A stretch of DNA of 64,000 bases from an uncultured Klebsiella sp. (GTDB lineage: Bacteria; Verrucomicrobiota; Verrucomicrobiia; Limisphaerales; SXTU01), in contig CAYZJP010000007.1 in assembly GCA_964478755.1 (NCBI GenBank), positions 1,117 through 65,116 of the forward strand, in the 5' to 3' direction. The position numbers and the translations under genes were made by a program. Below are positions 8,170 through 61,600 of the stretch, one piece after another; within the stretch, counting starts at the first letter, position 1, and every line of letters begins with the position of its first letter. The notes below the pieces were generated by a model. The model ran no database searches. It was not told the origin of the DNA and saw only the letters and a program-made list of their open reading frames with translations.

Positions 8170-8251
8170 AGCCACAGATGAAACACAGATTGAACACAGA
8201 TAAGCTTCGGCCAAGGAATTCTGTGTTTCGTCTGTGTTCAATCTGTGGCTA
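8170..8251. repeat. REP-A intercistronic hairpin element, short form
   Basis: GCCACAGATGAAACACAGATTGAACACAGA ... TCTGTGTTTCGTCTGTGTTCAATCTGTGGC. Fills the gap between the stop at 8159 and the ATG at 8263. Confidence 0.9.
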
Positions 8252-8262
8252 AGAAAATCTTT

Positions 8263-37708: not shown

Positions 37709-37990
37709 GGAGGTTTTCTGTCTTGGAGGTCGGGTGGTTCGTTCTGGTATCAAGGTTTTCTGTCCCGGAATCGAGGTATTCCGCGCCGGGGGCGAGGAGG
37801 CCCAGCTCAACCGCGAGGTATTCCAAGGCGGAATCAAGGTATTCCGGTTCAGCCACGAGGTTATCTGTCTCAGGTTCGAGGTTATTTGGCCCAGGTTCGA
37901 GGTATTCCGGGCCAGCCGTGAGGTTATCTGGTCCAACTTTGAGGTATTCTGACCCAGAATACCTCGTGGCTGACCCGGAAAACCTCATCT
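37709..37990. repeat. Degenerate tandem array with strict 21-bp period, ~12 direct units (core GAGGTATTC / GAGGTTATCTG) plus 2 inverted units
   Basis: AGGT of the core falls at 37711, (37732), 37753, 37774, (37795), 37816, 37837, 37858, 37879, 37900, 37921 and 37942. A perfect palindrome GAGGTATTCTG-acc-CAGAATACCTC sits at 37941-37965. Inverted cores (ACCT) fall at 37961 and 37982. The array lies immediately upstream of the AIM24 operon start (37563). Confidence 0.85.
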
Positions 37991-38237
37991 CCCGCCCGGA
38001 GTTGGCTATTTTTATACACCCTCACCTCCGCTCTGCCCATCAAACCTCCCCGTCCGGTTGCCTTCTGGAACGGATGGGAGTGCGCGCCAGCGGCTTGGAC
38101 GGCCGTAGCACTCTGCCGCTTTGGTGATCGTCGGGGAAATCACGCGCCGGGCCAATGAGCGGCGGCGTCCAACCCCTTTCCGCCCGTTGTGTCTGCGCTT
38201 CACAGCTCCGCGACGAGGCGTCACAGTCCCGGGCAGC

Positions 38238-43647: not shown

Positions 43648-43794
43648 GGGGAGCGCGCCCGCCCCGGGCGCCGCCAACCGCGCCCTCGCGGCTGGCCGTT
43701 GCGCGCACGAACACGAAAACTTTCCGTGCATCGGACGCGCCCGGCGGTCGCCGCGAGGGCGCGGCGACCGACACGCGGGGCGCGTGTGCTCCCC
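43648..43794. repeat. PAL-1 element, intergenic copy (oleC-oleD gap)
   Basis: Starts GGGGAGCGCGCCCGCCCC and ends GGGGCGCGTGTGCTCCCC. About 147 bp, the same length class as the coding copies. Confidence 0.7.
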
Positions 43795-47658: not shown

Positions 47659-47683
47659 AGCAAGGCCGGACTAAGACGAATCA

Positions 47684-47755
47684 GCCACAGATGAAACACA
47701 GATTGAACACAGACCCGGTTCCCCATCTGTGTTTCATCTGTGTTCAATCTGTGGC
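47684..47755. repeat. REP-A intercistronic hairpin element, short form, between pfaC and oleA
   Basis: GCCACAGATGAAACACAGATTGAACACAGA cccggttcccc ATCTGTGTTTCATCTGTGTTCAATCTGTGGC. Lies between the pfaC stop (47768) and the oleA start (47658). Confidence 0.9.
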
Positions 47756-47767
47756 CAAAGAAAGGTT

Positions 47768-50700
47768 TCATTCGCTCACGCCGCGCACGGTGAAGTTCTT
47801 CATCCCGTAAATCACGCGGCCATCCACCGAGAGAAAACCGTCCACCGTCAGCAACAGGTTCTCATCGTCCCACGCCGTGATGACCGCCTCGACCGTCACG
47901 AGCGAGTCGCGCGGAATCACCTGCCCGCGATACGTCCACTCGTGCTTCGCGTCCATCGCGACGGCTTCCCAGCGCAGGCTCGCAGCGTGGCCCCAGCGTT
48001 TCACGGCGCAGAATTTCAGCAGTTGCAAAAACGACTCCAGACCGAGCGAGCCGGGCACGACGGGGTCTTGATAGAAGTGCGCCTGGAAAAACCACTCGTC
48101 CGCCACGACGCGCTTCGTGCCGCGAATGAAGCCGAGCTGCTTCGGCCCGCCGTCCGGCACCCACGCGGTGATGTCGTCCACCATGCGCAGCATCGCGTCC
48201 GCAAACGGCACTTGTGTTGGATACGGCAGCGACTTCGCGCGCGCCAGTTCCGCCGCGCTCGGCTCGTAAAGTTTCACGCCCTTGATGCCTTCCTGTTTTT
48301 CCAACGCTGCCTTCGGGAAGAAACCAAAGTAGGTGTCGCCGCGATAAATTTTCTGCGCGCCCGCGCTGACCTCGAAATCGAACCACTGGATAATCATCCC
48401 CGCCGAGCTGGAGAGGCGCGTGTTCTTGATGCGCGTGGTGAGCGTGCCCACGCCGGGCCGCACGGGCGCGAACTGCGTGCCAGTGCCGCCGAGGTTGCGG
48501 TAGGAAAGGTCGTCGCTGCTCGTGAGCGCGGAGCCGATGTAGGCCGAGAGCCAGCCGCAGGGCTGCAACGCGATTTCGAGCAGCACGGCGAACGGCATAT
48601 CGCCTTGGCGGTTCGCGGCGAAATACCATTCGCCTGGCGGCACGTCGTATTCCGCCGTGACCTCGCCGCCCGCGACCATCTTGAACGCCTCGCAGCCGCG
48701 AATCTCCGTAATGCGGTCGAGGAATTGATATGGCGCGCGCGGCAGCCGCGCGATGCGACGCGGCGAGTCGGAGTCGAAAATGCGGTAAGGCGCGCCGAAA
48801 GCATCGGATGGATTGCCGCTGGAAAAGGCGGTGATGCGCTCGGGGCCGTAGAGCGCAAACTTCGGAGCGCCGGGCTCCGAACCGGCGTGTCCTACTCCAC
48901 TCGTTACTGCCTGCCGGTTTGGAAACCGGCGCTCCGCCGCATTCCACATCGCCCGCAATTCCTCCCGCGTCACGCCCGTGTAGCGCAGGCTCATGTTGCC
49001 GATTTCGACAATCGCCTTGCCGTCGGCATACATCAGCGCGTCGGCGATGACATACGGCTCCGGCCCGTAGCCGATTTCTTTAATTTCGATTTCGTAAGTG
49101 ACAACCTTCGTCGTCTCCAAAACTTGCCCGCGACACTTGAGCTGACCAACAACGCCGGGCACGGGCTCGAGCGCGACGCCTTCGCGTGCTTCCGCCACCC
49201 AGCCGAGCCGCAGCAGATGCACGCGCAACGTGTGCAGGCAGCACTCATACATCAGCGTGCCCGGCATCACGCGGTCGTCCACGAAATGGCAGGTGAGAAA
49301 CCAGTCGCTCGGATGAATGTCCGCTTCGCCGCGAATCAGCCCGAGACCGAACCGCCCGCCATTCGGCTCAAGTTTTTCAATGCGATGCACGAGGCGCATT
49401 TTTCCGCCGGGCAGCGTCACGGGTTTCGCTAGCTTCAGCGCGGCGAACTTCTCTCCAAAACATTTTGCCAAGTCGCCTTCGCGCAATGCGTCGAGTTGCG
49501 CCGCCGAATACGACTCCACCGCCATCGGCACGAAGTCTTCCCAATCCGCCGGGCGTTTGCCGGGCGTTGGCTTGAGTTGCAGCGCGGTGCGCACGACGCC
49601 TTTGCCCGCCGCCAAATCCTGCGGCGTGAAAAAGCCCGCGCAGCCCTCGGTCATCGTGAGCAGCGGCTGGCCGCCAACGGTGGACTCGAAGTTGAACTTG
49701 AAGAGCCACACGCCGCTCTGCTGGAAAAACCGCTCGATGCGGATGTCATAACGAATCACTTCACCCGGCCCAGGCAGACTGCGATGAAAGCAAACCTTCG
49801 CGTCGAGCAGCCGATACATCGCCAGCCCGCGCGTCTGGAAATCAATGCCGAGAAAACCGGAGAGAAACAAATCCGCCTGACCCGCCTCAACCGCGATGCA
49901 CGTCGGAATGCGCCCGCAATCGAGATACCACGCGCCCGGATGAACATCGTGCTCCGTCACGACTCGCCCGTGTGTCATCGAGCGCGGCTCGCCCTCGATG
50001 GCCGTAATGCGGTCCACCAGTTGCAACGGCGTATCGGGCAGCCGCACGCGCGTCGGGAAGGAATCCACTTCAGCGAAGAGCGAGCCGAGCGCGTTGCCAA
50101 TTTTTCCAATCGCAAATTCAAAACACTGCTCGCGCGTGAGCGAGCGCGGAACAGTCGTCGGAGGAGCGCACGCCGCTGGCGTGCCGTCTTCAGCGGCCCG
50201 CTGAAAACGTCGTTCCTCTAACTCTCCTCCACGCGCCTCGAAGAAAGGTGGCATGACGATGGAATTGGGCGGGCCGCCCAATTCCGCACGCGGGCCGCGT
50301 GCGCTCCCCGCCCCATTCGCCGCCCGCGCCACCAAATCCAACTGCGTCTGCACCGCCTCGGACAGCGACTTGAACACGCCTTGCGAGAACGCCAAGTAAG
50401 CCTCGTGCGCCTGCAACGTCGTCGCCTGCGCCTGCGCCATCGCCGTGAGCAATTCGGCTTCAAAAGGATCCTCTGCAACTTCAGTTCTCGCCGGCACAAG
50501 CTGCGGCTCCGCCCCTCTGCTGGGTGGAACGGGCCACTGGCCCGTCCCGTCGGGCGACTCGCCCGACGGAATTTCGGCGCGTGTCCCTGCTACAATCGTG
50601 CTCCCTTCAGTCCGAGAGTGCGCCGTCGCTCCGCGCAGCGGGTCGCTGCGCGGAACAGGCGAGTCGCCTGTTCCACCCGAACCAGACTTCGGCCGCTCCG

Positions 50701-53700
50701 GCACCACGATGCGCGCACCCGTAATGGGGATGACCACCTGCTTCCCTTCCGGTTCCGGCGCGGCTTCTTCTTCGCGCACGCCATACAGCGGCTCCAAGTT
50801 CACCGGCAAACCTTCGGCCCACAGCGCGCCGAGCACTCGCAGCACGTCCAGCAGCGGCTCCTTCGCCGACAGGCACAGCGAACGGGCGAAGTGCGGCTGC
50901 CCTTCCAAAATCTGTCCAATCATCCGCGAGCACGACGCACCCGGCCCCATCTCGATGAAGAACCGCACGCCATCCGCATACGCGGCTTGCACGACGCGCG
51001 GAAAATCAATCGTGGCGCTGGCCTGCGCGACGATGGCATCCGCCGCCGTCTCACGGTCAGGCAAATAACTGCGGCCCCAGCCGCCGCTGTAGAACGTCAC
51101 GTCCGCCGGCGGCGTGGTCGTGAAGCGATGCAGCTCGCGATACGGCTCCAGCACCGGCTTGAGCAGTTCGCAATGCACCGTGCTCACGCCGTCGAGCGCG
51201 AAGAAGTGGCAGCCGAGTTTTGTTACAAGCGCATGCACCTGCTCCGCGTCGCCGCCGAGGACGCATTCGCGCGGCGTGTTGACGATGAGAATGTAAGTGC
51301 GCGCCAGCCCGGCCATCGCAGCGCGGACTTCCTCGGCGGGCCGGTCAACGAGGCCCGCAACCCAAGCGACAGACTGTTCAGCAGGCAGTTTCCACGCGCG
51401 CCGCAGCGCGGCAGATTCGCCGGTCAAATCCTTCGTGAACAACGTCGAGGCCGTGACGCGCGCGAGCATGTCATCACGTGCAGTCCATGCACGAAGTGCG
51501 AACAAACTCGTGCTCTCGCCGAGGCTGTAGCCGATGGCGGCATTGGGCTTCAAGCCGAGCGAAACCGCGATATCGCTGACGAACGCGCCGAGCGCGACCT
51601 GTCCGCAAATCGAAACGCGCTGGTCGGTGACGGGCACGGTGGCATTCCAGAATTGCGCGGCAAACATCTGGCTGGCGAGCCGGTCGTTCTCGCGATCTTG
51701 CGCGCGAAGAATTTCCGGGAACAGCAATCCCAGTTCGCGCCCCATGTCCGCGAAGTGATTGCCCGCGCCGGGAAAGACGAAGGCGACTTTGCCGCGAACG
51801 CGCTTCTCCGGCGGAGTGAAGAAAAGCCGATCACGGTCGCGGTGGTCGAGTGAAGGTAGGGCCGCGCTGCCGCGCGGCTGTTGGATGAGCAAAGCCGCGG
51901 CATCCAGCAACCGGGCAAATTGCGCGCGTTCTTCGGCGATGAAGGCGAGCGTGAGGAGCGCCGAGCATTGCTCGGCATTGGCGGCGGCTCTGGCCGAGCG
52001 ATGCTCGGCGCTCCAATGCCAGCGACGGGCCAGCGTGTCGAGCGGGGCGCTCGGCGCAGAGGCGGCAAGGCGGCGGAGTGAATCGAGTTGCGCGAGCAGT
52101 CCGGCGGCCTCGTCGGCCGCGAATGTGAAGAGGGCATCCCCCCGCTTGGCAGCAGCCGACGTGAGGAGGATCTGACTGACAGCCCTCTCATTAGCACCGG
52201 GCTTCAGCCCGGTGTGAATGCGCGCAAAGTCGCAAGCCGTTTCAACGGCTTCCCGCCCGCCCGAAACCGTTGAAACGGTTTCGGACTCTTCACTGTCCGG
52301 AGACACCCGGCTGAAGCCGGGTGCTAATGAAACAGGAGATGATGGGTCAAAAACTGGAGCTTCCTCCAACACCACACACACCGCATTGCCATCCACGCTG
52401 CTCGTCGTGACTGCGGCGCGGCGCGGGCCGTCGGCGCGGTCGCGAACCCACGGTTGCGGCGCGGCACCGCGCGCGTGACGCGGCAGCACTTCGCCGTGCA
52501 ATGCGAGCGCGGCTTTCGCGAGATTCACAAGACCCGATGCCGCGCCGGTGTGGCCGACTTCGTTTGCCGCGCTGGCGATTAAAACGGAGTTATCAAAACC
52601 AGCCTCAGCACAAGCGCGCGCGGTGGCGAGTTGCGCTGCGGAGCGCGGCCTTGAGGCCGCAGAAACCTCCGAAGTTTTGTTTCGCTCGGACGGGATCTGG
52701 ATCGCCTCGTCCTTCGCGCGCTTCTGCGGCGTGAACGCCGCGCTCCCAACACCGATACCGCGAATCACGGCGTAGATGCGGTCGTTGTCGCGCTGCGCGT
52801 CGTCGAGACGTTTCAGCACAATTGCCACGGCGCCTTCGCCGGGAATTTCATTCGCACCGAGCGCGGCTTCGGCGAGGCGAGCGCGGAGGTCGCCGGTGAG
52901 TTCCACGCCGCCGGAGAGTGCGAGATCGAGTTCGCCCTGTTGCAGCGCGCGCACGGCGATTTCGAGCGCGCTCAGGCCGCTCGTGTCCTCGCTGCACACG
53001 GTGTAGCTCTGGCCGCCGATGCGGAATTCCTTCGCGATGCGGCTGGCGTTCGTGCCGGCGAGCGCGCCCATCGTGCGGTCGGCGTTGAGCGGCGGGCCAA
53101 CGGAATCCGCGGCAGCCTGTCCATCGCGCAGCATCGCCCAGCGCAGATGAAAATCCGTCGTGCGCAAATCCAACCCGAGGCCGATGAAGACGCCCGTCCG
53201 CGCGGGGTTGGGGCCGTTCACACGCGCGTCGGCGAGCGCGTCGCGCGCGACTTCGAGCATCAACGCTTGCTGGGGCAGCAACTCGCCGAGTTCGCGCGGC
53301 GGAATGCGGTAGCGGTTGACGGGTATGGCGAGGTCGTCAACGAAATAACCGGCGAGCTGGGGAGCGCACGCCGCTGGCGTGCCGTCTTCAGCGGCCCGCT
53401 GAAAACTTTGTTCGACTGATTTGTCTTCCTTCGCCGAGGAAGAAGATGGAGTGACGGGCGAATTGGGCGAGCCGCCCAATCCGGCACGCGGGACGCGTGC
53501 GCTCCCCGTCGAGCCGCAGGACGAGCGGAGCAATTCAGTGTTCAGGCCGCGCCAGTCGAAGCGGGCTTGCGGCTGTGTCTCGGTGTCCGCACCGAGCACG
53601 CGGGCGGCGAAGGAACGGAGATTTTTCCACGGACCGATGTGCGCCGCGAGGCCGACGATGGCGATGGGAAATGGGGGATGGGGAATAGCGTCTGGCGTCT

Positions 53701-55303
53701 GGGGCGAAGCGCTTGGAGCGCCGGCTTCCAAACCGGCGTTTGCCGATGCACCGGAACTCAGCTCTCGCCGAACCGGAGTTCGGCGCTCCGTTTGTCCGCA
53801 CCACTCCTCGATGAGCACGTGCGCGTTGATGCCGCCGAAGCCGAAGCCGTTGATCGCTGCGCGGCGAGGCGCGTTTGCTTCACGACGATTCCACGGCTGG
53901 CTTTCCTTCAACACGCGGAAGGGGCTTTCGCCGAGCGGAATTTTATCCGAGGGCCGCTGAAAATTCGGCACGGCGGGCAGCGTGTTATTTTTCAGCGCGA
54001 GCAAGACCTTGACAAGCCCCGCCGCGCCCGCGCCGGTGAGCAAGTGGCCGATGTTGGCCTTCACCGCGCCGAGCGCGCACTGGCCGCGCTGCCACGGACG
54101 CCCGGCCCAGAGTTGTTGCAGGCTCGTGAACTCGACCGCGTCGCCGACCGGCGTGCCGGTCGCGTGGCACTCGATAAAATCCACCGTCTCCGGCTCCCAT
54201 CCGGCGGACGCGTAGGCGAGCCGCAGCGCGCGCAACTGGCCTTCGGAACTGGGCGAAAGCAAATTCCCGTCGAGATCGTTCGACACGCCCGCGCCGCGGA
54301 TGAGCGCGTGAATCTCATCGCCGTCGCGGAGGGCGTCGGAAAGGCGCTTCAACACGACGACGCCCGCGCCTTCGCCGACGATGAGTCCGCTCGCCGCCGC
54401 ATCGAAGGGCGTGCAACGCCCGCTCGTCGCAAGCGCGCGGAGCTGCGAGAAACCCATCTGCGTGTAGAGCGAATCGGGCCGCGAGACGCCGCCCGCAAGC
54501 ATCGCATCGGCGCGGCCCGCGTGGAGTTCGTCGCTGGCAAGCTTGAGGGCGTAGAGCGATGAGGCGCACGCGGCGTCGAGCGTTCGCGTGCCGCCGCCGA
54601 GGCCGAGGGCTTGCGCGAGGATCCCGGCGGGCAGACCGGCGACGTAGCGGTTGAGCGGATGGGTTTGGAGTGGGTGGAACGGGCTACCAGCCCGTTCCGT
54701 CCGGCCACTGGCCGGGCGGTTGTTATCGTGCGCGCTGGAGCGGCGTGCGCTGGGAGCAGGGATGCGCGCGGTCGTTCCGTTCGGCGGGTCGCCGAACGGG
54801 ACAGGCGAGTCGCCTGTTCCACCCTGCAATGGGCGGACGCCGAAGAGTTTCTCCTCCAGCAACTGCGTCAGGATTTCCTCACAGAGCTTGGAGGAACTTT
54901 CCGTGGGCAACGCGATGTGGCCGAGAGTGACGCCGACGCGGCTGCGGTCGAGTGCAGCGGTCTTTGCGCTGGTGAAGGCGTCGCGGCCCGCAGCGAGCAG
55001 GAGGTGGACGACGGGGTCGAGTTGCGCGAGCAGGTCGCGGTCAACGGCGAGGCCGGCGGGGTCGAGCGTGAAGCCTTCGATGAAACAGGCGCGGTCGGTA
55101 TAGACGCGGTCGGGCGTGCCGGGCGTGGGATGGAGGATGTCGGCGGGGTTCAGCCGCCAGCGGCCCGGCGGCGCGGGACGGCTGGTGTCGCGTCCGGCGG
55201 CGATGATTTGCCAGAACTCGTCCAGCGAGCGAGCGCCGGGGAAGACGCCGCCGAAGCCGACGATGGCGATGGGTTCGCCGAAAGATGGCGGGGCGGCGGT
55301 CAT
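47768..55303 (-). CDS. pfaC: PUFA-synthase PfaC-like megasynthase: KS - CLF-like KS - AT - 2x(FabA-type DH pair)
   Basis: Uninterrupted 2511-aa ORF. KS: IAIVGFGGVFPG, DAACASSLYAL, ECHATGTPVGD, NIGHLLTGAG. The second KS-like domain lacks the Cys (...CSEDTSGLSALEIA). AT-like: FVFPGAGNHF, GYSLGES. FabA-like DH: VTEHDVHPGAWYLD, HPSDWFLTCHFVDDRVMPGTL, EYDVPPGEWYF, ADEWFFQAHFYQDPVVPGSLGLE. No C-terminal acyltransferase. Confidence 0.9.
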   Translation of the reverse strand: MTAAPPSFGEPIAIVGFGGVFPGARSLDEFWQIIAAGRDTSRPAPPGRWRLNPADILHPTPGTPDRVYTDRACFIEGFTLDPAGLAVDRDLLAQLDPVVHLLLAAGRDAFTSAKTAALDRSRVGVTLGHIALPTESSSKLCEEILTQLLEEKLFGVRPLQGGTGDSPVPFGDPPNGTTARIPAPSARRSSAHDNNRPASGRTERAGSPFHPLQTHPLNRYVAGLPAGILAQALGLGGGTRTLDAACASSLYALKLASDELHAGRADAMLAGGVSRPDSLYTQMGFSQLRALATSGRCTPFDAAASGLIVGEGAGVVVLKRLSDALRDGDEIHALIRGAGVSNDLDGNLLSPSSEGQLRALRLAYASAGWEPETVDFIECHATGTPVGDAVEFTSLQQLWAGRPWQRGQCALGAVKANIGHLLTGAGAAGLVKVLLALKNNTLPAVPNFQRPSDKIPLGESPFRVLKESQPWNRREANAPRRAAINGFGFGGINAHVLIEEWCGQTERRTPVRRELSSGASANAGLEAGAPSASPQTPDAIPHPPFPIAIVGLAAHIGPWKNLRSFAARVLGADTETQPQARFDWRGLNTELLRSSCGSTGSARVPRAGLGGSPNSPVTPSSSSAKEDKSVEQSFQRAAEDGTPAACAPQLAGYFVDDLAIPVNRYRIPPRELGELLPQQALMLEVARDALADARVNGPNPARTGVFIGLGLDLRTTDFHLRWAMLRDGQAAADSVGPPLNADRTMGALAGTNASRIAKEFRIGGQSYTVCSEDTSGLSALEIAVRALQQGELDLALSGGVELTGDLRARLAEAALGANEIPGEGAVAIVLKRLDDAQRDNDRIYAVIRGIGVGSAAFTPQKRAKDEAIQIPSERNKTSEVSAASRPRSAAQLATARACAEAGFDNSVLIASAANEVGHTGAASGLVNLAKAALALHGEVLPRHARGAAPQPWVRDRADGPRRAAVTTSSVDGNAVCVVLEEAPVFDPSSPVSLAPGFSRVSPDSEESETVSTVSGGREAVETACDFARIHTGLKPGANERAVSQILLTSAAAKRGDALFTFAADEAAGLLAQLDSLRRLAASAPSAPLDTLARRWHWSAEHRSARAAANAEQCSALLTLAFIAEERAQFARLLDAAALLIQQPRGSAALPSLDHRDRDRLFFTPPEKRVRGKVAFVFPGAGNHFADMGRELGLLFPEILRAQDRENDRLASQMFAAQFWNATVPVTDQRVSICGQVALGAFVSDIAVSLGLKPNAAIGYSLGESTSLFALRAWTARDDMLARVTASTLFTKDLTGESAALRRAWKLPAEQSVAWVAGLVDRPAEEVRAAMAGLARTYILIVNTPRECVLGGDAEQVHALVTKLGCHFFALDGVSTVHCELLKPVLEPYRELHRFTTTPPADVTFYSGGWGRSYLPDRETAADAIVAQASATIDFPRVVQAAYADGVRFFIEMGPGASCSRMIGQILEGQPHFARSLCLSAKEPLLDVLRVLGALWAEGLPVNLEPLYGVREEEAAPEPEGKQVVIPITGARIVVPERPKSGSGGTGDSPVPRSDPLRGATAHSRTEGSTIVAGTRAEIPSGESPDGTGQWPVPPSRGAEPQLVPARTEVAEDPFEAELLTAMAQAQATTLQAHEAYLAFSQGVFKSLSEAVQTQLDLVARAANGAGSARGPRAELGGPPNSIVMPPFFEARGGELEERRFQRAAEDGTPAACAPPTTVPRSLTREQCFEFAIGKIGNALGSLFAEVDSFPTRVRLPDTPLQLVDRITAIEGEPRSMTHGRVVTEHDVHPGAWYLDCGRIPTCIAVEAGQADLFLSGFLGIDFQTRGLAMYRLLDAKVCFHRSLPGPGEVIRYDIRIERFFQQSGVWLFKFNFESTVGGQPLLTMTEGCAGFFTPQDLAAGKGVVRTALQLKPTPGKRPADWEDFVPMAVESYSAAQLDALREGDLAKCFGEKFAALKLAKPVTLPGGKMRLVHRIEKLEPNGGRFGLGLIRGEADIHPSDWFLTCHFVDDRVMPGTLMYECCLHTLRVHLLRLGWVAEAREGVALEPVPGVVGQLKCRGQVLETTKVVTYEIEIKEIGYGPEPYVIADALMYADGKAIVEIGNMSLRYTGVTREELRAMWNAAERRFPNRQAVTSGVGHAGSEPGAPKFALYGPERITAFSSGNPSDAFGAPYRIFDSDSPRRIARLPRAPYQFLDRITEIRGCEAFKMVAGGEVTAEYDVPPGEWYFAANRQGDMPFAVLLEIALQPCGWLSAYIGSALTSSDDLSYRNLGGTGTQFAPVRPGVGTLTTRIKNTRLSSSAGMIIQWFDFEVSAGAQKIYRGDTYFGFFPKAALEKQEGIKGVKLYEPSAAELARAKSLPYPTQVPFADAMLRMVDDITAWVPDGGPKQLGFIRGTKRVVADEWFFQAHFYQDPVVPGSLGLESFLQLLKFCAVKRWGHAASLRWEAVAMDAKHEWTYRGQVIPRDSLVTVEAVITAWDDENLLLTVDGFLSVDGRVIYGMKNFTVRGVSE
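48864..48935. repeat. PAL-2 element in-frame in pfaC (between DH modules)
   Basis: GGAGCGCCGGGCTCCGAACCGGCG ... GCCGGTTTGGAAACCGGCGCTCC. Encodes AERRFPNRQAVTSGVGHAGSEPGAPK. Confidence 0.85.
50163..50309. repeat. PAL-1 element in-frame in pfaC (AT-DH linker)
   Basis: GGAGCGCACGCCGCTGGCGTGCCGTCTTCAGCGGCCCGCTGAAAAC ... GGAATTGGGCGGGCCGCCCAATTCCGCACGCGGGCCGCGTGCGCTCCCC. Encodes GSARGPRAELGGPPNS...RRFQRAAEDGTPAACAPP. Confidence 0.85.
50522..50678. repeat. PAL-3 element in-frame in pfaC (after AT)
   Basis: GGGTGGAACGGGCCACTGGCCCGTCC ... GGAACAGGCGAGTCGCCTGTTCCACCC. Encodes GGTGDSPVPRSDPLRGA...SGESPDGTGQWPVPP. Confidence 0.85.
52151..52172. repeat. PAL-5 solo arm in-frame in pfaC
   Basis: AGCAGCCGACGTGAGGAGGATC matches 19 contiguous nt of the PAL-5 left arm at 4466-4488. 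Encodes ...ILLTSAAAK... Confidence 0.7.
52188..52329. repeat. PAL-7 multi-hairpin element in-frame in pfaC (CLF-AT linker)
   Basis: Terminal inverted repeats TCATTAGCACCGGGCTTCAGCCCGGTGT / ACACCCGGCTGAAGCCGGGTGCTAATGA; each arm is itself an 8-bp hairpin. The centre has CCGAAACCGTTgaAACGGTTTCGG (11-bp stem). Encodes SLAPGFSRVSPDSEESETVSTVSGGREAVETACDFARIHTGLKPGANE. Confidence 0.85.
53359..53507. repeat. PAL-1 element in-frame in pfaC (inside the CLF-like region)
   Basis: The first ~50 nt are near-identical to the 50163 copy (GGGGAGCGCACGCCGCTGGCGTGCCGTCTTCAGCGGCCCGCTGAAAAC). Ends ...GAATTGGGCGAGCCGCCCAATCCGGCACGCGGGACGCGTGCGCTCCCC. Encodes GSARVPRAGLGGSPNS...SFQRAAEDGTPAACAPQ. Confidence 0.85.
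53715..53789. repeat. PAL-2 element in-frame in pfaC (KS-CLF linker)
   Basis: GGAGCGCCGGCTTCCAAACCGGCG ... CGCCGAACCGGAGTTCGGCGCTCC. Encodes TERRTPVRRELSSGASANAGLEAGAPS. Confidence 0.85.
54672..54824. repeat. PAL-3 element in-frame INSIDE the pfaC KS domain
   Basis: GGGTGGAACGGGCTACCAGCCCGTTCC ... GGGACAGGCGAGTCGCCTGTTCCACCC, 153 bp = 51 codons. Encodes QGGTGDSPVPFGDPPNGTTARIPAPSARRSSAHDNNRPASGRTERAGSPFHP, about 50 codons upstream of DAACASS. Confidence 0.85.
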
Positions 55304-55356
55304 GCGCGGGACGCTCGGCGAGTGCGTGAGCGGGGCGGAGTGCGAGTGGGCCGTTT

Positions 55357-55491
55357 CCCCTCACCCCGGCCCTCTCCCTTGGGGAGAGGGAGAAACACAG
55401 TCAGCGGTGGGCTAGGACGTGCGTGTCCGAAAAACTCGAAGACGGGCGAGCTGGTTCCCTCTCCCGGAGGGAGAGGGTTAGGGTGAGGGGG
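55357..55491. repeat. PAL-8 composite palindrome in the pfaA-pfaC spacer
   Basis: CCCCTCACCCCGGCCCTCTCCCTTGGGGAGAGGGAG (55357-55392) and its inverted partner CCCTCTCCCGGAGGGAGAGGGTTAGGGTGAGGGGG (55457-55491). Confidence 0.85.
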
Positions 55492-55593
55492 AAGGGAAAG
55501 TTGAATGAGCGATGCGCTTTGGACGGAACGCGCGTTGCGATTTCGAGCTGGCGGAAAGGCGGCTTCGCGCGGCGGGGCGCCGCAGACACTTTT

Positions 55594-55618
55594 CTGCGAC
55601 GGGGCGTCGCAGCCACGG
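55594..55618. repeat. PAL-9 hairpin, intergenic copy
   Basis: CTGCGACGGGGCGTCGCAGCCACGG, just downstream of the pfaA stop. Confidence 0.75.
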
Positions 55619-55643
55619 ATGCAGCTACGGGACGCAACGGGGT

Positions 55644-58600
55644 TCACGCGGGCAGATGGTTCTGGCGGAAGGCTTCGCGGAGGTTCGCGTCCACGACAAA
55701 CTCGTAGCCTTCGCCGAGCGCGAGCAACGCTCCGGCGCGGTCGAAGAATTGCAGGTCGGCCACGGCCACGGGCGTTTCCGCCGAGGTGACGCGCGCGACG
55801 ACGCGGCTGCCGCCGGTCTTCGGGAACGCGGCGAACTGCCGGAAGCTCCGCAGCGCGCACGGCAGCGACGGCGCGGCGCGTTGCGCGGTGCTCCACAAAA
55901 TCATGAGCTGAAACGCGGCATCGAGCGCGAGCGGGTCGGCCAGCCACGCGGGCCGCAGCGGCTGGGCAATCATCTGCTTCGGCGCGGGCGCGGAGCGGAC
56001 GAGCGCGGCGGCGTTCGTCGGATTGCAGACTTCGAGCGCCTCGATGCATTGGAAGTCCGGGCCGTGGAAGAGACGTCCATCGCCATAAACTTTCTCCGAC
56101 AAAATGCCGTTGCGCTTCACGGCGGGCGTGATGCTCGGTGCGGTGGGCAGCGTGTCCGCGAGAAGAATTTCCGCCGTGGCGTGCAGCGTGGATTTGTTGC
56201 CGCCGTTGCGGCTGGTGAATTGCACCGGCACGGCGAGCAGGCCGTCGCGCGGCTGCGGCGGTGCAGCGGAAACGGTGACGTGCGCGGTGGCGTCGCCTTC
56301 GAGGACGAGGCCCTTGAGCACTTTGAAGCCGTCGAAGCCGTGGAAGGCGAGGCCGGGGTTGCCGTGCAGCGCGCCGTGCGCGAGCCACTCGATGATGAGC
56401 GCAGCCGGCAGGACAGCGCGGCCGTTCATGACGTGCGAGACGAGGCAGGGCAGCGCGCGGACGGAAATGTCACGGTCGAACGCGGGGTGGAAACTGGAGG
56501 GGGAACTTACTGGTCCGGGTGGAACGGGCCACTGGCCCGTTGCGGCGGGCGACCCGCCCGCCGCTCGAACTGCGCCCAGTGCGACCCGGTTCGGCTGAAC
56601 GGTGACGGTGCCGAAGCTCGACGGCAGGTTGCCGTCGAGAACGGCCAAGTTGGCCGTTCCACCCTGAACAGGCTGGGCCAACGCGAGGATTTCGACGGCT
56701 TCGCCGGTGGGGGCGAGCACGTCGCGGACGAAGCAATCGGCTCCGGCGTCCGGCTCGATGAGGCCGACGCCTTCGCGCTCGAAGATTTTGCGGAGGCCGT
56801 CGTTGACCATGCCGCCGTTCCACGGGCCCCAGTTGAAGGCGACCACGCGGCACTGCGGGCGGCGGCGGGCCTCGGCCTGCGCCATCTTGTTCAGCACTTC
56901 GTTAGCGGCGGCGTAATCCACCTGGCCGGTGCGGCCGAAGCGTCCGGTGTAGCTGGAGAAAAGTGCGATGAGGCGAAGGTCGTCGGTCGCGGTCGCGGCG
57001 AGGAGGTTGCGAAGGCCGTGGACTTTCGTGCCATAGACGAGGTCGAATTGCTCCTCGGTCTTTTGCTCAATGAGTTTGTCGGCGAGCACGCCCGCGCCGT
57101 GGATGAGGCCGCGAATCGGGCCGTGCGCGGCGCGGACTTCCGCGAGCGTGGCGGTGACGGTGGCGGCATCGCGGACATCGAGCGTGGCGTAGTGCGCGAG
57201 CGCGCCGGTCGCGCGAATCTCAGCGAGGTGCGTGCGGATTTCGCGCTGGGCCATGACTTCGCGGAACTTCGCTTCCAGCCGCTTCGGCGAGCGGTCGCCG
57301 TCGGCGTGCGCGAGCAGGGCCTTCTTAATGTCGGCTTCGCTCGTGAGGCCGACGAGCCAGTGCGGCTCGGCGTCGGGCAACGTGCTGCGGCCCAGCAGGA
57401 GGAAGCGCGGCTGGTGGCGGCGAGCGAGTTCGAGGACGGACGTGGCGGTGACGCCGCGCGCGCCGCCGGTGACGACGACGAGGTCGCCGCGCTGGAGGGC
57501 GGGCGCGGGGTTGTCGAGCACGGGGGCGGTCTCGATTTCGAGGCTGTAGCGCTGACCGCCGAAGAGGCCAACCTCGATTGGGCCGGCGCGGAAGATTTCC
57601 TCGGTGATTTGGTTCGCGAGTTCGGTGCCGCTGGCCGCGCCGGGGTCGAGGTCGAGAGCTTTGCAGTGAACTTCCGGCCACTCGTGGCGCGCGGTTTTCA
57701 CGAGGCCAGCGAGGCCGCCGCTGACGACGTCGGCGGTCGCGTTCATCACGCCGAGGCCGAAGAGTCCGTCGAGGCGTGAGGCGGAGACGAGCACGGCGGC
57801 TCCGCTGCGACCAGCCGCGCGCAGCGAGGGCGCAGCGACTTGGATGAGACGGAAGGCCGACTTGAGGAAAGCGTCGCCGCCGGACGCAGCGGGCGCAAGC
57901 AGAACGAGCGCGGCGGGCAACGGGGCGTTGCGGTCGGCGAGCAGTTCGGTGGGCGCGCCGCGACGGACGGTGAGGCCGCGTTGCTCAAGGTTCTTGACGA
58001 GCGCGGCGGTGAGGCTGGTGCCATCATCGGTGAGCCAGACGAGTGAGCCGGGCGCGAGCGTGACGTGCGGGCGCGTGTCGGCGGCTGGGAAAGGCGTAGG
58101 GCGGAGGATTTGGCGGAAGAGCGTCGGCCTGGGTGGCACGGGCGACTCGCCCGTGACGGTCGGCGACCCGCCGACCGGAATGGCAGAAGGCAAGCGAGTG
58201 GGAAGCTGCGCTGGCTTCGCAACGGACGCGTTCGTCGTTTCGTCCGGCGAGTCGCCGGACGGGACAGGCCAGTGGCCTGTTCCACCCGGAGCAGAACCCG
58301 CGCACAGGAAATCCACGACCTCCTGCAGGGTGCGAAGGGAGCCGAGGTGCTCGGGTTTGATTTCGGGAGCGCTGGGAAGTTGCGTGCGGAGCGCGGCCAT
58401 GATTTCGACGCGCTTGATGGAGTCCACGCCGAGGTCGGAATCCAGCCCCATGCCGAGGTTCAACATCTCGAGGGGGTAGCCGGTTTTTTCAGAGACAACT
58501 TGAAGGAGAACGCGACTGGCTTCGGCAGCGTCAACACCGGCGGAGACAAATGCATCCCGTGCGCTGTCCGCCGCTGTAACGCCACGCACTTCAACCGTGG

Positions 58601-61600
58601 AAGAGCCGCCCGCGCAGAGGAAGTTCACCACGTCCTGTAAAGTCTGCAACGTGCCGAGGTGCTCGGGTTTCACCTCCGGCGCATCGGGCAGGCGCGCGCG
58701 CAACGCGGCCATGATCTCGACGCGCTTGATGGAATCAATGCCGAGGTCGCTGTCCAGGCCCATGCCGAGCGTGAGCATCTCGGCGGGGTAGCCGGTTTTT
58801 TCGGAAACAATTTCGAGAACAGACGTCGCAATGCGGGAAATGTCCGCAGTTTGTGGAACGCGCGACTCCGGCGGGCAGTTCCCATCGTCGTGCTGGGATC
58901 TCTGTTCGACCGGCTTTTCATTGCGAACGACGACTGAAGTCTGAGCGGCAAATGAATCGGGCGCGACGCCCGATTCAGCACGCGAGACGCGCGCGCTCCC
59001 CAACGCTTCACGCTGCATCGGAGCCGATGAAACGGGCGCAGGAGCGATTCTCTGCACAGCGTCCGGCGCGGCGGCGGGCGCGAGCGGCGGCAGGCCGAGC
59101 AATTCGCGGCGCTGGCCCAGCAGCGATTCGAGCGAGCGGCGGGCGGCCTCCTGGTTTGCGAGAAATTGCTGGTGCAACTGCGCGGTCTGCTCCTGCAGCT
59201 TTTGCAGAGCGAGCATTCCCTGCTGCGCCGTTTGCAGCGCGGCGGCAACGTCACCGGAAAGCGGCGCGGCAGGCGAAGCAGCGCGTTGCTCCGGTGAAGT
59301 GTTGCTGTTCGCATTGACCATTTCGCGGCGCGGCAGCGGCGGACGTTCCGGCGGGCGCGTCATGCGGACGTTCGCGCCGGAGACGGGCACAGTGAACGCG
59401 GGCTTCGCGTTCTTTACCGGCGCGGCGGGCGGGACAGTTTCCCACTTCGTCAAATCCACCGCGTGACCGAGCGCGGCAACGCGGCAGAGCGCGATGGCGA
59501 GATCGAACGTGCCGTTGCGCGTGCCGCGCGAGGCGTCGAGCGCGATGGCATCCACGTCGCGGCCCGGCAGAATCGCCTGCACGAGGTCGCACAGCACGTG
59601 GCCGGGGCCGAGTTCGAGGAAGGTCGTAACGCCGTCCGCGTGCATCGTCTCCATTTGCTTGATGAAGTCCACGGGGCGCACCATCTGGCTGGCCAGCAGG
59701 TCGCGCGCGGGCTTCGCGCCCGGCGGGTATTCCCTGGCCGTCGAGTTCGCATAGACAGGGATGCGGCCCTTGGTGAAAGGAATTTCCTCCAGCACGGCGG
59801 CGAACGGCTCGCGCGCGTCGGCGACGAGCGAACTGTGAAACGCGGCGGCAACCGGCAGCACGCGGGCGCGGATGGAGCGCTTCGCGGCCTCGCCGGCGGC
59901 GTATTCGATCTGAAGCTTCGGCCCGGCGAGCACGAACTGCGTGGGGGAATTGCGGTTGGCGATGACGAGCTGCGAATCGTTCAGGCGCGCGAGTTCGGCG
60001 ACGGTTTTTTCCTCCGCCTGCACGGCGAGCATGGAGCCGCGGTCGCTGTGGCCGTTGCGGTTCGCCATCAGCCGGCCGCGCACGTTCGAGAGCAGGTGCA
60101 GCGACTCGCGCTTCAACCGGCCCGCGCCGTAGAGCGCGGCGAGTTCACCGTAGCTGTGGCCGGAAGTCGCTTCGATCGTGATGCCGAAGGATTCCGCAAG
60201 GCTCAACGCGGCGACGCTCACCGCGCCGAGCGCGGGCTGCGCGACGTCGGTGGCCTTCAATGCTTCTTCCTGCGCGTGACGGGCTTCGTCGTTGAAGGCG
60301 GGATGCGGGTAGATGAAGTCGCTGAGGCGTGGCTGCGCCGCCTCGGCGCAGCGGGGTGCGGGCGACGCCGCGTCGCCCGTTCGTGCAGCGGGGCGCTGCG
60401 CCCACGCGGACTGCGACGAGGGCGTCGCAGCCACGGCGAAAGCAGCGTCAGCGTCGGCCAGCGCGTCGAGCACTTCGGGGAACTGGCACGCGAGGTCGCG
60501 GAACATCCCGACGTATTGCGAGCCTTGACCGGGGAAAAGCGCGCCCAGTTTGCCGCGCCGCTCGCCGGAGCCGAAGCAGACGCCGGTGGGCAAGGCCCAG
60601 GAAGTTTTGTCGGGATGTTTGTCGAGCATCGCGAGCGCAGCATCGCGGAGCGGGGCGAGAGAGAATTGTTCGGAAGCCACCCCCTCACCCCGGCCCTCTC
60701 CCCCGGCGGGGGCGAGGGAGGAGGAGGCGGTGGGTTTTGACGACGATTCTTTTGAAAGCGGAAGCAACAGGCGGAACTTCGCTTCGATGCGGAAGGACTG
60801 GCGCGAGGCGTGGGCGCGGCGGCGAAGGTCAGGCCAGGGAAGTTCAGTAGGCAGCGCGGCGAGTTGCGCGCGGAGGTCGGAAAGTTTTTCGGCGCAGAGC
60901 GCAAGGATTTCCACGTCGCCGTTCCAATCGGGTGCTTGGCGCGCGCCGCCGTGTTCTTCGAGGACGCAGTGAAAATTCGTGCCGCCAAATCCAAAGGCGC
61001 TCACGCCAGCGCGGCGTGGATGATTCGCGCGCGGCAGCCACGGGCGCTTCGTCGTGTTCACGTAGAACGGCGAGCCGGGCGCGGCGTCATCGAGCGGCTG
61101 GGAAACTTTGATGGTGGGCGGCAGGACTTTTCGTTCGAGTGCGAGCGCGGCCTTGATGAGTCCGGCGACGCCGGCGGCGGCCTTCGTGTGGCCGATCTGC
61201 GACTTCACCGAACCGAGCGCGGCCCAAGCGCCATCTGACTTCGCGGCGGAAAAAACTTTCGTGAGCGAACGCAGCTCCGTGGCGTCGCCGACTTTGGTGC
61301 CGGTGCCGTGGGCTTCGATGAGTTCAACCGTGTCAGCGGTGACATCCGCGTTGGTGTAGGCGCGTTCGATGGCCTGGATTTGGCCTTCGGAGCGCGGCTC
61401 GTAAATCGCGCCGCCGCGTCCGTCGCTCGACGAGCCGATGCCCTTGAGCACGCAGTAAATTTTGTCACCGTCGCGCTCGGCGTCGGTGAGGCGCTTGAGC
61501 ACGACCATGCCGAGTCCTTCGCCGAGGATGGTGCCGTCGCAATTTTTGTCGAAGGGCTTCGCGTCCCCCGTCGGCGAGAGCGCCGGGGTTTTGCTGAAGC

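Follow-up and report, generated by a model that had tools for sequence, protein, structure and literature searches.

How does a palindromic repeat of 153 nt come to lie within the catalytic domain of a ketosynthase (KS), and what kind of repeat is it? In the 64-kb stretch of DNA that we analyzed (the window), two intact ORFs on the minus strand encode PUFA synthase subunits: a PfaC-like protein of 2511 aa (47768-55303; KS-CLF-AT-4xFabA) and a PfaA-like protein (55644-62534; KS-AT-2xACP-KR-DH) whose true start is probably the methionine at residue 68. A sequence-only reading had reported four copies of a palindromic element, PAL-3, and we found all of them again, at 50522-50678 (157 nt), 54672-54824 (153 nt), 56517-56664 (148 nt), and 58131-58287 (157 nt). 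As that reading claimed, the elements have GGGTGGAAC at one end and GTTCCACCC at the other. With up to 2 mismatches allowed, we counted the 13-mer terminus 10 times in the window, as compared to 2.9 ± 1.8 times in shuffles; none of 100 shuffles of the window reached 10 occurrences, and 8 of the 10 correspond to the two ends of each copy. All four copies are in frame, two in each ORF. The original observation is partly confirmed, in that it holds with corrections that we describe below, and its interpretation as a whole is partly supported.

PAL-3 has two inverted arms of 48 nt on either side of a poorly conserved spacer of ~55 nt. In the KS copy, the left arm (54672-54719) has the GT(G/A)G-tagged GGGTGGAAC and then two GC-rich hairpins with conserved ACY loops, and the right arm (54777-54824) is its inverted counterpart (75% complementary). 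Instead of the two internal sub-hairpins that had been described, there are two hairpins per arm and four per element. Shuffled sequences fold much less stably than either the 54672 copy as RNA (-83.6 kcal/mol, z = -5.2) or the 50522 copy as DNA (four hairpins, -56.6 kcal/mol, z = -7.9). In an alignment of 100 arms, ~90% of which carry the tag as GTGG, 95% of cells pair and 12 of the 17 pairs have changed on both sides. The covariation score of the arms is 0.53, versus 0.14 in shuffles (0 of 500 reach 0.53) and at most 0.09 with slid partners. We found no match in Rfam for the region 47000-63000 at E ≤ 0.1.

The element belongs to a family that is multicopy per genome across the Verrucomicrobiota (Limisphaerales/Pedosphaera-type MAGs). 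Searching for the terminus pattern, we obtained more than 114 stretches; they come from ~40 MAGs, of which nearly all bear a Verrucomicrobiota label. With an nhmmer profile built from the four copies, we recovered 71 elements of near full length (spanning more than 140 of the 153 profile positions), most of them 143-158 nt long; 67 of the 71 lie outside the window. The copy at 56517, which represents a 148-nt subfamily, shares 83-89% identity with elements from other MAGs (L068, L049, L106, and L036). Family members lie mostly between genes, and in-frame copies are a small minority: just 14-28% of the elements have an ORF around them that continues for at least 100 or 60 codons in both directions, versus 56-71% of random positions, and searches with profiles of the translated element hit almost exclusively orphan ORFs of under 200 aa. 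Among the small number of large host proteins, PfaA-like ones turn up repeatedly. Against this mostly intergenic background, all four copies in the window are intragenic, plausibly because long linkers tolerate them.

The copy at 54672 encodes residues 160-211 of the PfaC-like protein (QGGTGDSPVPF…ERAGSPFHP), in a variable loop. It lies in the catalytic domain and not in a linker, as the sequence-only reading stated: the match to Pfam's ketoacyl-synt is split there. The insert is indeed upstream of the active-site cysteine, Cys246, but not by "about 50" codons; it starts 86 residues before Cys246 and ends 35 residues before it. The catalytic residues (C246, H380, and H420) are all present, and the best structural match is the KS-CLF of PfaC (6RIW). 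AlphaFold gives a confident fold (mean pLDDT of 88.4, pTM of 0.87) with the insert modelled as a disordered loop; the only segment below 50 pLDDT is residues 161-200, within the insert. The other three copies are in interdomain linkers: between the AT region and the FabA-type dehydratases of the PfaC-like subunit (50522 copy, residues 1542-1594), and after the second ACP (58131 copy, residues 1416-1468) or between KR and DH (56517 copy, residues 1957-2006) of the PfaA-like subunit.

The KS of the PfaA-like subunit lacks an insert in the corresponding stretch, as had been noted. Among ~120 PfaC-type KS domains, nearly all carry just 6-12 residues at the insert position. The closest relatives, L115, L120, and L121, do have inserts of similar size at the same junction, but these are palindromic repeats other than PAL-3. 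In two close relatives, L116 and L117, the site is empty at the DNA level. These findings support PAL-3 being an inserted repeat and not a native KS loop. Alternatively, the insert could be an ordinary lineage-specific variable loop of PfaC-type KS, with its palindromy a by-product of GC-rich low-complexity coding. Loop length does vary among the homologs (0 to 16 aa in most), but the same 150-nt family is found at over 100 unrelated, mostly non-coding places, and neither the folding z-scores nor the compensatory changes in the hairpins fit this idea. The dispersed family and the empty sites refute it, and we give it practically no weight.

The other palindromes in L115, L120, and L121 mark the KS junction as a recurrent spot for landing or retention. 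The right junction is common to the different elements, to within 1 nt, which hints at targeting or at replacement of one element by another, neither of which would be predicted by pure random insertion plus selection. The linker sites are variable as well. In L115 there is no insert at the 56517 site; L120 has a D1-like element both there and at the 58131 site; and the L115 linker that is orthologous to the 50522 site carries a different palindrome. P0348 has a similar in-frame insert after the same ACP-flanking sequence as the 58131 copy, and P0303 has a PAL-3-type insert in its post-ACP linker. Different repeat families colonize the same permissive sites again and again. At the filled and empty sites that we compared (the KS site and the 56517 site), no target-site duplication is visible.

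Could the host have co-opted these repeats, either as flexible linkers and loops for domain movement in the megasynthase or as mRNA hairpins that pause ribosomes for co-translational folding? The same domain boundaries and the KS loop are hit in different lineages by different repeat families, the mRNA hairpin is very stable, and the recurrence of PfaA-like hosts would also fit. However, recurrence at these sites is equally expected if they are the only tolerated ones. Also, the inserts are variably present or absent among close relatives (76-90% identical), with some sites fully empty; the peptides are of low complexity and come out as disordered in the model; the central sequence of the element is unconstrained; and most family members are intergenic. 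We consider co-option unlikely.

A clue to how the repeats move comes from five related loci (L023, L038, L097, L048, and L119), in which PAL-3-type arms bracket the gene of a RAYT-type transposase (REP-associated tyrosine transposase, HUH/Y1). The layout is REPIN-RAYT-REPIN in L048 and L119 and arm-RAYT-arm in L023 and L097. The bracketed RAYT has a core of 152 aa with the HUH motif (PDHVHLII) and YVCGNPW. This core scores 73.3 bits (E = 1.8e-20) against REP_Tyr_transpos from NCBIfam, which is just under the curated cut-off of 80, and 23.2 bits against Y1_Tnp from Pfam, which is exactly at the cut-off. Most of its 191 homologs are of ~217 aa, and JGI gives many of them the name "REP element-mobilizing transposase RayT". 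Dispersed copies of PAL-3 are also present in three of the MAGs that have this RAYT. In four MAGs, the cognate RAYT is in frame inside alaS, and the RayT ORFs seem to extend through the arms that flank them.

With its 48-nt inverted termini and length of ~150 nt, PAL-3 might be taken for a classical MITE, that is, an internally deleted IS with terminal inverted repeats that is moved by a DDE transposase and makes target-site duplications. Formally, the arm-gene-arm units of L023 and L097 (620 nt) and the arm-spacer-arm elements (150 nt) do resemble an IS and its MITE. But the gene between the arms encodes a Y1/HUH RAYT and not a DDE enzyme, filled sites show no duplication relative to empty ones, and the compensatory changes fit recognition of single-stranded hairpins and not of duplex termini, which makes a classical MITE quite improbable. 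IS200/IS605 elements have a Y1 HUH transposase and subterminal hairpins that are recognized as single-stranded DNA, and they insert next to a short specific target without duplicating it. PAL-3 resembles these elements and the MITEs derived from them in its type of transposase, its hairpins, and the lack of target-site duplications, and insertion beside a short target would be consistent with the common junction in the KS loop. In contrast, IS200/IS605 ends are asymmetric, with different hairpins on the left and right, while the ends of PAL-3 are inverted repeats.

The sequence-only reading also held that the 58131 copy is inverted and that the element is translated in either orientation. Between the right arm of the 58131 copy and the left arm of the 50522 copy, complementarity reaches 90% (versus 74% identity in direct orientation), but against the 54672 copy the direct fit is slightly better (0.72 versus 0.68 overall, and 0.59 versus 0.47 for the centres), so the inversion is weakly defined. 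When the four copies are aligned, the 48-nt arms match, but the centres are ~50-59% alike either way and are barely alignable. Because the centres are so diverged, the orientation of the copies cannot be fixed robustly, and translation in either orientation, which is weakly testable, is only partly supported. What does stand is the symmetry of the arms, because of which the end peptides in this phase are equal in either orientation. The N-side peptide is GGTG(D/H)(S/W)PVP and the C-side peptide is TG(Q/E)(W/S)PVPP, as described, except that the 54672 copy shifts phase internally and reads AGSPFHP on its C side. The GGTG phase is used on the N side by all in-frame copies in recognizable host genes (the four copies in the window, L041, two in L119, P0303, P0348, and the alaS insertions), and also by the RayT ORF fragment P0121.

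Every retained intragenic copy keeps the reading frame, which is the signature of translation through the element. This bears on whether PAL-3 might be removed before the enzyme matures, as an intron-like RNA or an intein-like peptide, so that the KS is never interrupted. A general analogy with selfish elements in essential genes is the sole support for removal. Besides the conserved frame and the lack of an Rfam match, a group I or group II intron would have to be much longer than 150 nt, and the inserts in the window have no intein junction residues (Cys/Ser/Thr … His-Asn plus a nucleophile); their ends are GGTG and PVPP or FHP. Removal thus seems very improbable. Like inteins and homing endonucleases, the RAYT unit in alaS is a selfish element in frame at a tolerated or conserved site of an essential gene, but both it and PAL-3 lack splicing motifs, and the host protein presumably keeps the extra peptide.

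Given the dispersed family, the hairpin covariation, and the arm-bracketed RAYT, PAL-3 is best read as REPIN-like. We think it probable that PAL-3 is a non-autonomous mobile element that is mobilized by a RAYT and tolerated as an in-frame passenger in pfaA and pfaC. We did not find a RAYT gene within the window, and the loci that we retrieved come from genomes other than the window's own, so the case for mobilization in trans rests on related genomes, whose arm-bracketed genes make a RAYT (HUH/Y1, IS200-like) the most likely agent. The transposase would act on single-stranded DNA hairpins and would not duplicate the target, as in other REP/RAYT and IS200/IS605 systems. The four copies in the window would be insertions that kept the reading frame and are read in the sole phase (GGTG…P.P) that gives a stop-free, disordered peptide rich in Gly, Pro, Ser, and Thr; we infer selection on this phase. 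They would be retained where an extra loop is tolerated; one of these places is a variable surface loop of the PfaC KS, and the other three are linkers between domains. The KS insert would stay in the RNA and in the protein. Its conserved frame, disordered peptide, and tolerant site suggest a tolerated passenger loop of ~52 residues, probably neutral, and not a functional module.

Like REPs and REPINs (Nunvar 2010; Bertels & Rainey 2011, PMC3116915; Ton-Hoang 2012; Di Nocera 2013, PMC3733652), PAL-3 has GC-rich hairpin units with a conserved 5' tetranucleotide tag, two inverted units that form a larger hairpin, many dispersed and mostly extragenic copies per genome, and a Y1/HUH RAYT gene bracketed by its own repeats, with no target-site duplication seen. 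It differs in its tag (GTGG in ~90% of arms instead of the canonical GTAG), in having two hairpins per arm and a ~150-nt unit that is larger than classic REPINs, and in its host phylum. It also differs in that a notable share of its copies and the RAYT gene are in frame inside host genes and in the apparent read-through of the arms by RayT ORFs, and we found no description of these features in the literature searched.

Intragenic GTAG/CGTC REPs and "TIRYT" elements have been described, including in the verrucomicrobium Opitutus terrae (Di Nocera et al. 2013, PMC3733652). Some REPs lie entirely inside ORFs, sometimes as dimers or twice per gene, and their insertion into flexible linkers or loops was argued to be neutral. 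Some species have RAYT-type genes that sit between long inverted repeats, and these repeats make up families of moderate abundance in their own right (PMC3733652). The PAL-3 copies in the window likewise lie wholly within ORFs, in linkers and a loop, and the RAYT of the related loci is flanked by arms of the repeat family. The segments encoded by REPs in that study are mostly short, and insertion into a catalytic KS, colonization of the same sites by different families, and a RAYT in frame in alaS do not appear in its description.

As for the Rickettsia palindromic elements (Ogata et al. 2000, as cited in PMC10969869 and PMC3733652), these are described there as ~150-bp palindromes in frame in unrelated, apparently functional protein-coding genes, with an added peptide that is predicted to be compatible with the fold of the host protein, as for PAL-3. 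They are from a different phylum, and no transposase is established for them, while PAL-3 has a cognate RAYT in relatives and in its family the in-frame copies are greatly outnumbered by intergenic ones. By analogy with Rickettsia, the in-frame landing of PAL-3 in a tolerant surface loop would be a known kind of event, to which a transposase that is itself in frame inside host genes adds interest.

Four copies of PAL-3, a palindromic element of ~150 nt with two inverted arms around a spacer, lie in frame within two PUFA-synthase genes of the window, and both ORFs are intact. The copies at 50522-50678 (157 nt) and 54672-54824 (153 nt) are inside the PfaC-like ORF (47768-55303, minus strand; 2511 amino acids, KS-CLF-AT-4xFabA, where KS is the ketosynthase domain and CLF is its partner domain). 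Those at 56517-56664 (148 nt) and 58131-58287 (157 nt) are inside the PfaA-like ORF (55644-62534, minus strand; 2296 amino acids, KS-AT-2xACP-KR-DH). The copies share the termini GGGTGGAAC…GTTCCACCC. With up to two mismatches allowed, the 13-nt terminus occurs 10 times in the window, as compared to 2.9 ± 1.8 times in shuffled sequences, and eight of these occurrences correspond to the ends of the PAL-3 copies, two for each. The four elements that had been proposed from the sequence alone are thus real.

The pfa cluster also contains a PfaD-like enoyl reductase, a KASIII-like gene, a hydrolase, an AMP-ligase, and a PPTase. At 62331-62534, the listed pfaA ORF begins with a GTG codon, and the 67 arginine-rich residues after it share their DNA with the PfaD-like gene upstream. 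The true start is probably the methionine of MSQSAPLAIVGLS, which is residue 68.

The copy at 54672-54824 encodes residues 160-211 of the PfaC-like protein and breaks the Pfam match to its KS domain in two (the junction reads …FGVRPLQGGTGDSPVPF…). The KS domain of the PfaA-like protein has no insert at the matching place, in agreement with the sequence-only reading. That reading put the insert about 50 codons before the active-site cysteine; in fact it ends 35 residues before Cys246. If PfaC-type KS domains generally had a comparable loop, then this segment could be a native part of the enzyme. We searched with PfaC residues 1-501 and aligned ~120 PfaC-type KS domains, and nearly all of them have just 6-12 residues at this position. 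P0004 and P0005, which are among the closest relatives (76-85% identity), have 9-10 residues, and in the corresponding DNA (loci L116 and L117) the site is cleanly empty. So, PAL-3 in the KS domain of PfaC is an insertion and not a native loop.

When we modelled PfaC residues 1-520 with AlphaFold2 on the basis of a 62-sequence alignment, the model was confident (mean pLDDT 88.4, pTM 0.87). Its single low-confidence stretch is residues 161-200 (pLDDT below 50, no secondary structure), which falls between the helices at 135-154 and 216-219. The best structural match to the model is 6RIW, the solved KS-CLF didomain of PfaC, and the catalytic residues Cys246, His380, and His420 are conserved.

Other relatives have different repeats at the same place. 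The proteins P0001/P0003, P0002, and P0009 have inserts of 45-52 residues in the KS loop, and these inserts are other palindromic repeats, of the GGGGAGCGCAC…GCGTGCGCTCCCC types. The right junctions coincide within one base (…CCACCC|ACTCCAAACC for PAL-3 and …GCTCCCC|AACTCCAAAC for the other repeats). At the DNA level, this junction (54824/54825 in the window, and its counterparts in the related loci L115, L120, and L121) is common to four lineages, within 1 nt. It falls directly before (A)ACTCCAAAC, and the occupants other than PAL-3 are three different GGGGAGCGC-type elements. In the two relatives that are nearest to the window in the alignment, the site is empty. The shared junction, along with the empty sites in the nearest relatives, fits targeting, replacement of one element by another, or precise excision better than purely random insertion; it may also reflect selection alone.

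The other sites also vary in their occupancy. In L120, both the 56517 site and the 58131 site have an element like D1 (a second repeat family of the window); in L115, the 56517 site is empty. The linker that corresponds to the 50522 site has a further, distinct palindrome family in L115. L115, with DNA that is 85-90% identical across the pfa region, has no PAL-3 whatsoever. P0348 has a similar PAL-3 insert after the same ACP-flanking sequence as the 58131 copy. P0348 is a fragment of 394 amino acids with ACP domains, and P0303 (2194 amino acids) is a full PfaA-like protein with in-frame PAL-3 inserts in its AT-ACP and post-ACP linkers. Among 1.84 billion representative proteins, these two, with their PfaA-type domains, are among the very few large proteins with PAL-3 in frame. 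When we compared filled and empty sites for the KS loop and for the 56517 site, we found no target-site duplication; the linkers are too diverged for the left-side junctions to be placed to the exact base.

PAL-3 is not the only palindrome in this region. D1 (termini GGGGAGCGCACGC…GCGTGCGCTCCCC) is found at 50163-50310, 53361-53508, and 58855-59002. These copies are translated in frame as well (GSARVPRAG…TPAACAP), and the one at 53361 falls within the N-terminal portion of CLF. There are two more in-frame palindromes in pfaC, at 52188-52330 and 52640-52746. One of them begins with TCATTAGCACCGGGCTTCAGCCCGGTGT…, is read as …HTGLKPGANE…, and lies after the CLF domain; the other has the termini GGAGCGCGGCC…GGCGCGCTCC and seems to occupy a loop in CLF's C-terminal half. 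Together, pfaA and pfaC contain at least nine palindromic inserts (PAL-3, D1, and the two others). Yet another palindrome (55351-55496), of the family CCCTCACCCCGGCCCTCTCCC…, fills a 340-nt spacer between pfaA and pfaC. In L115, pfaA and pfaC overlap by 4 nt, and there are five or six copies of the CCCTCACCCCGGCCCTCTCCC family in the pfa region (including 5127-5268, 6849-6996, 7232-7377, 8735-8892, and 12702-12846). More palindromes are found elsewhere in the window (31078-31218, 43648-43794, 31759-31829, 37837-38000, 8165-8255, and 47684-47755); some of them are GGGGAGCG-type elements, and one hairpin, GCCACAGATGAAACACAGATTGAACACAGA, is present twice. Several REP-like families are abundant in this genome.

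To describe the PAL-3 family more broadly, we scanned for its terminus pattern. Among the matches listed, there were at least 114 stretches in at least ~40 metagenome-assembled genomes (MAGs), with many stretches per MAG; these copy numbers are lower bounds. Nearly all of the listed MAGs are labelled as Verrucomicrobiota (Limisphaerales, Pedosphaera). Typical PAL-3 elements were also found on contigs from MAGs labelled as Bifidobacteriaceae, Klebsiella, or Candidatus Limnocylindria (L017, L022, L042, L073, L095, L058, L020, L027, and L099), which is probably due to mis-binning or mislabelling and does not indicate a wider host range. The loci that we fetched exclude the window's own genome, and the best match among them (L056) is 83% identical. 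A profile of the four copies identified 71 near-full-length elements, mostly of 143-158 nt, and 67 of the 71 are outside the window.

Most of these elements are not in genes. Between 14% and 28% of them lie in ORFs that continue for no fewer than 100 or 60 codons to either side, versus 56-71% of random positions. We do not consider the longest spanning ORF to be a valid test of being intragenic, as it over-calls in GC-rich genomes. On inspection, most of the long spanning ORFs were antisense, were arginine-rich artefacts, or put the element ahead of the true start or of a signal peptide. By inspection, L041 (a sensor kinase) was the sole copy in the fetched loci that is clearly inside a real gene. 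Similarly, two profile searches with the translated element gave 55 and 282 hits, and nearly all of these were orphan ORFs of under 200 amino acids. PAL-3 is thus a multi-copy and mainly extragenic family, and the window, with four of four copies inside genes, is exceptional.

The sequences of the arms are constrained by their pairing. From 100 arms, we derived the consensus GGGTGGAAC-[GGGCnACYnGCCC]-GTTCCGG-[CGGCnACCnGCCG]. There are two hairpins in each arm and so four in each element, and not two internal sub-hairpins per element as the sequence-only reading had it. In the alignment of the 100 arms, 95% of the cells are paired, 12 of the 17 pairs show changes on both sides, and the loop-closing positions show all four Watson-Crick pairs. 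The covariation is 0.53, as compared to 0.14 for shuffles (0 of 500 reach the observed value) and at most 0.09 if the partners are slid. The 48-nt arms of an element are also 73-75% complementary to each other across a spacer of 57-64 nt, which gives one larger hairpin, and single-strand folds of whole elements are far more stable than those of shuffled sequences (z = -5.2 and -7.9). At the foot of its hairpin, a REP unit is expected to have the tetranucleotide GTAG (or CGTC). In PAL-3, positions 3-6 read GTGG in ~90% of the arms and GTAG in ~10% (the GGGTAGCAC variants), and the related D1-like arms next to the RAYT (REP-associated tyrosine transposase) gene of the locus L118 do begin with GGTAGCGCACGCG. 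The covariance models of Rfam 15 had no match to positions 47000-63000 of the window at E ≤ 0.1.

Many intergenic copies have further inverted repeats in the 15-20 nt that border the GGGTGG…CCACCC core (for instance GAACCATGCAGTTGG…CCAACTGCATGGTTC, in flanks of the L024 and L106 types), so the PAL-3 core is often nested within a longer, subfamily-specific palindrome. Because the flanks are themselves inverted repeats, no independent target motif can be read beside the termini of the intergenic copies.

In five loci from different MAGs and assemblies (L023, L038, L097, L048, and L119), a small gene lies between PAL-3 arms. In L023 and L097 the arrangement is arm-gene-arm (620 nt); in L038 it is the same but is interrupted by the end of the contig; and in L048 and L119 the gene is between two complete elements. 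The 152-amino-acid core of the encoded protein has the HUH motif PDHVHLII and the motif YVCGNPW. It matches the NCBIfam model for REP-associated tyrosine transposases (RAYTs; NF047646, REP_Tyr_transpos) at 73.3 bits (E = 1.8e-20, positions 4-145 of 146; the cut-off is 80) and Pfam's Y1_Tnp at 23.2 bits (the cut-off is 23). We found 191 homologues, mostly of ~217 amino acids, and many are named "REP element-mobilizing transposase RayT" by JGI. The MAGs JBKBTZ01, JBBRQL01, and JBEKIA01 have both the RAYT and dispersed copies of PAL-3, and there is no RAYT gene within the 64-kb window. In L118, a homologue of the RAYT is bracketed by GGTAGCGCACGCG…CGCGTGCGCTACC arms, which belong to the D1 family, so D1 has a cognate RAYT of its own.

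We also considered if PAL-3 could be a classical MITE that was derived from a parent with a DDE transposase. We rejected this idea: the only gene that we found between PAL-3 arms is a RAYT of the Y1/HUH type, the filled and empty sites compared for the KS loop and the 56517 site do not differ by a target-site duplication, and the similarity between the flanks of intergenic copies is inverted instead of direct. Judging from the sequences, PAL-3 fits the scheme of a REPIN (two inverted REP hairpin units) that would be mobilized by a RAYT. It departs from that scheme in its tag (GTGG in place of GTAG), in having two hairpins per arm, and in transposase scores that just reach or narrowly miss the curated cut-offs.

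The RAYT units themselves are found inside host genes. Among the matches listed from the genome scan, all four of the PAL-3-type RAYT units are in frame within the alanyl-tRNA synthetase gene (alaS), in four MAGs. Three occupy a common site that follows …ELFN(D/E)E… (L023:2980-3599; L038:7362 to the contig's end; and L097, ~620-1240 on the minus strand), and one is at a second site, after …KYGSTLP (L048:2228-2920). The ORF is continuous across the unit (1131 amino acids in L023, 1207 in L048, and at least 976 in L097). An unrelated in-frame palindrome occupies the second site in L097. The unit in L119 (3839-4678, PAL-3-RAYT-PAL-3) is in a gene for an N6-methyltransferase of the MmeI/Eco57I type, between FDWAKEFPEIM and GFDVVIGNPPY. 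Further along, this gene contains one more PAL-3 in frame, the third (5920-6068). The apparent frameshifts in this contig may be sequencing errors or gene decay. We found no description of a RAYT inside alaS, or of an in-frame RAYT, in the literature that we searched.

Wherever PAL-3 is in frame in a recognisable host gene, it is read in the same phase, with GGTG… at the N side, regardless of the palindrome's orientation. This holds for the four copies in the window, which in the orientation of the gene start with the same codon phase, (S/Q/P)GGTG(D/H/A)…, as well as for L041, two copies in L119, two in P0303, one in P0348, and the alaS units. The GGTG phase encodes a peptide that is rich in Gly, Pro, Ser, and Thr. 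The other two phases encode peptides rich in Trp, Arg, and Cys (GWNGPLARCGG…, WVERATGP…), which we saw only in spurious ORFs. As insertion cannot sense the reading frame, the best explanation for the uniform phase is that selection determines which of the insertions are retained.

The sequence-only reading proposed that the element is translated in either orientation, with PVPP-type peptides at the C side, and that the 58131 copy is inverted. The C-side peptide does not hold for the 153-nt copy, where an internal phase shift gives AGSPFHP. The variants in the arms favour inversion of the 58131 copy relative to the 50522 copy (90% versus 74%), but the identities of whole elements (0.63-0.72 among the four copies, direct or reverse-complemented) and of their centres (~0.5 either way) do not discriminate. 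Since global identity is uninformative about orientation, the inversion rests on the arm variants, and the orientation of this copy is weakly defined. Overall, the earlier observation is of a real feature and is largely correct.

The junctions of the inserts, (S/Q/P)GGTG…PVPP or PFHP, also bear on whether they are inteins or introns. They do not show the intein combination of an N-terminal Cys, Ser, or Thr with a C-terminal His-Asn and a downstream nucleophile. We rejected this reading on these grounds and because of the size of the element.

The arms of the transposase genes suggest why the frame stays open. Nearly all of the RayT homologues of ~217 amino acids start with M…GSARVSRAGDGV.PSRTF and end with …SSFRRDAETSTRDACATQ, which are the two arms of a D1-type element, with no internal methionine. 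In the stand-alone ORFs of P0123-P0165 and L118:1209-1961, the reading frame starts upstream of the arms of the ORF's own flanking repeat and runs through both. P0121, a fragment of a PAL-3-type RayT, starts with MGGTGDPPVAAGNLP…ARSTQ. To judge by these ORFs, the arms seem to belong to the coding sequence of the master copy. If the master copy keeps its arms able to code, then the non-autonomous copies would inherit this ability, and the read-through offers a reason for the open frame of the in-frame copies.

We think it likely that PAL-3 is a REPIN-like element that is kept in these proteins as a tolerated, disordered, in-frame passenger. The palindromic elements of Rickettsia (RPEs) are palindromes of ~150 bp that are inserted in frame in many genes (reviewed in PMC10969869). 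PAL-3 resembles them in being an in-frame palindrome of ~150 bp within intact genes (four in the window, and also in L041, L119, P0303, and P0348), but its hosts belong to another phylum, and this is an analogy of behaviour alone. Also, Di Nocera et al. described intragenic GTAG/CGTC REPs, including in the verrucomicrobium Opitutus terrae, and RAYT-type genes with long inverted-repeat flanks, and they argued that REPs in flexible linkers or loops are neutral (PMC3733652). PAL-3 is like these REPs in that the repeat is within an ORF, in a flexible loop or linker. As its behaviour matches that of both RPEs and intragenic GTAG/CGTC REPs, the in-frame palindrome is a known kind of phenomenon. What is new here is the PAL-3 family, its presence across a whole PUFA synthase and within a catalytic KS domain, the reuse of the same sites by different families, the apparent translation of the arms, and the in-frame RAYT nested within a gene.

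REPIN/RAYT systems are defined as extragenic, with stand-alone single-copy transposases. More tentatively, and with the balance somewhat against it, we speculate that these Verrucomicrobia have a REPIN-RAYT lineage that has specialised in living within coding sequences. RayT would have the translated arms as its N- and C-terminal tails. The PAL-3-type RayT unit, in frame within alaS (at two sites in four MAGs) and within a restriction-modification methyltransferase gene in one further MAG, would be expressed with the host gene and protected by it, much as an intein is. Non-autonomous copies would, as a by-product, be pre-adapted to survive as in-frame passengers. The copies may be directed to particular junctions, which would lead different families to the same nucleotide in the loops and linkers of PUFA synthases.

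Such repeats explain odd low-complexity segments in the megasynthases and other proteins of Verrucomicrobia. They also explain hundreds of orphan "hypothetical proteins" of 50-150 amino acids in metagenomes, which are translated repeats that annotators and modellers can mask. For PUFA synthases, they amount to a natural insertion scan: PfaA and PfaC tolerate ~50 residues in the KS loop, in the CLF loops, after the ACP domains, and in the KR-DH and AT-DH linkers. These positions are borne out by independent insertions in a number of lineages and can help in the engineering of PUFA synthases, and the features of this system should interest specialists in these enzymes as well as in mobile elements. 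If the translated arms and the in-frame transposase in alaS are as they appear, then they would broaden the picture of REPIN/RAYT systems and would tie together REPINs, the in-frame palindromes of the Rickettsia type, and intein-like persistence.
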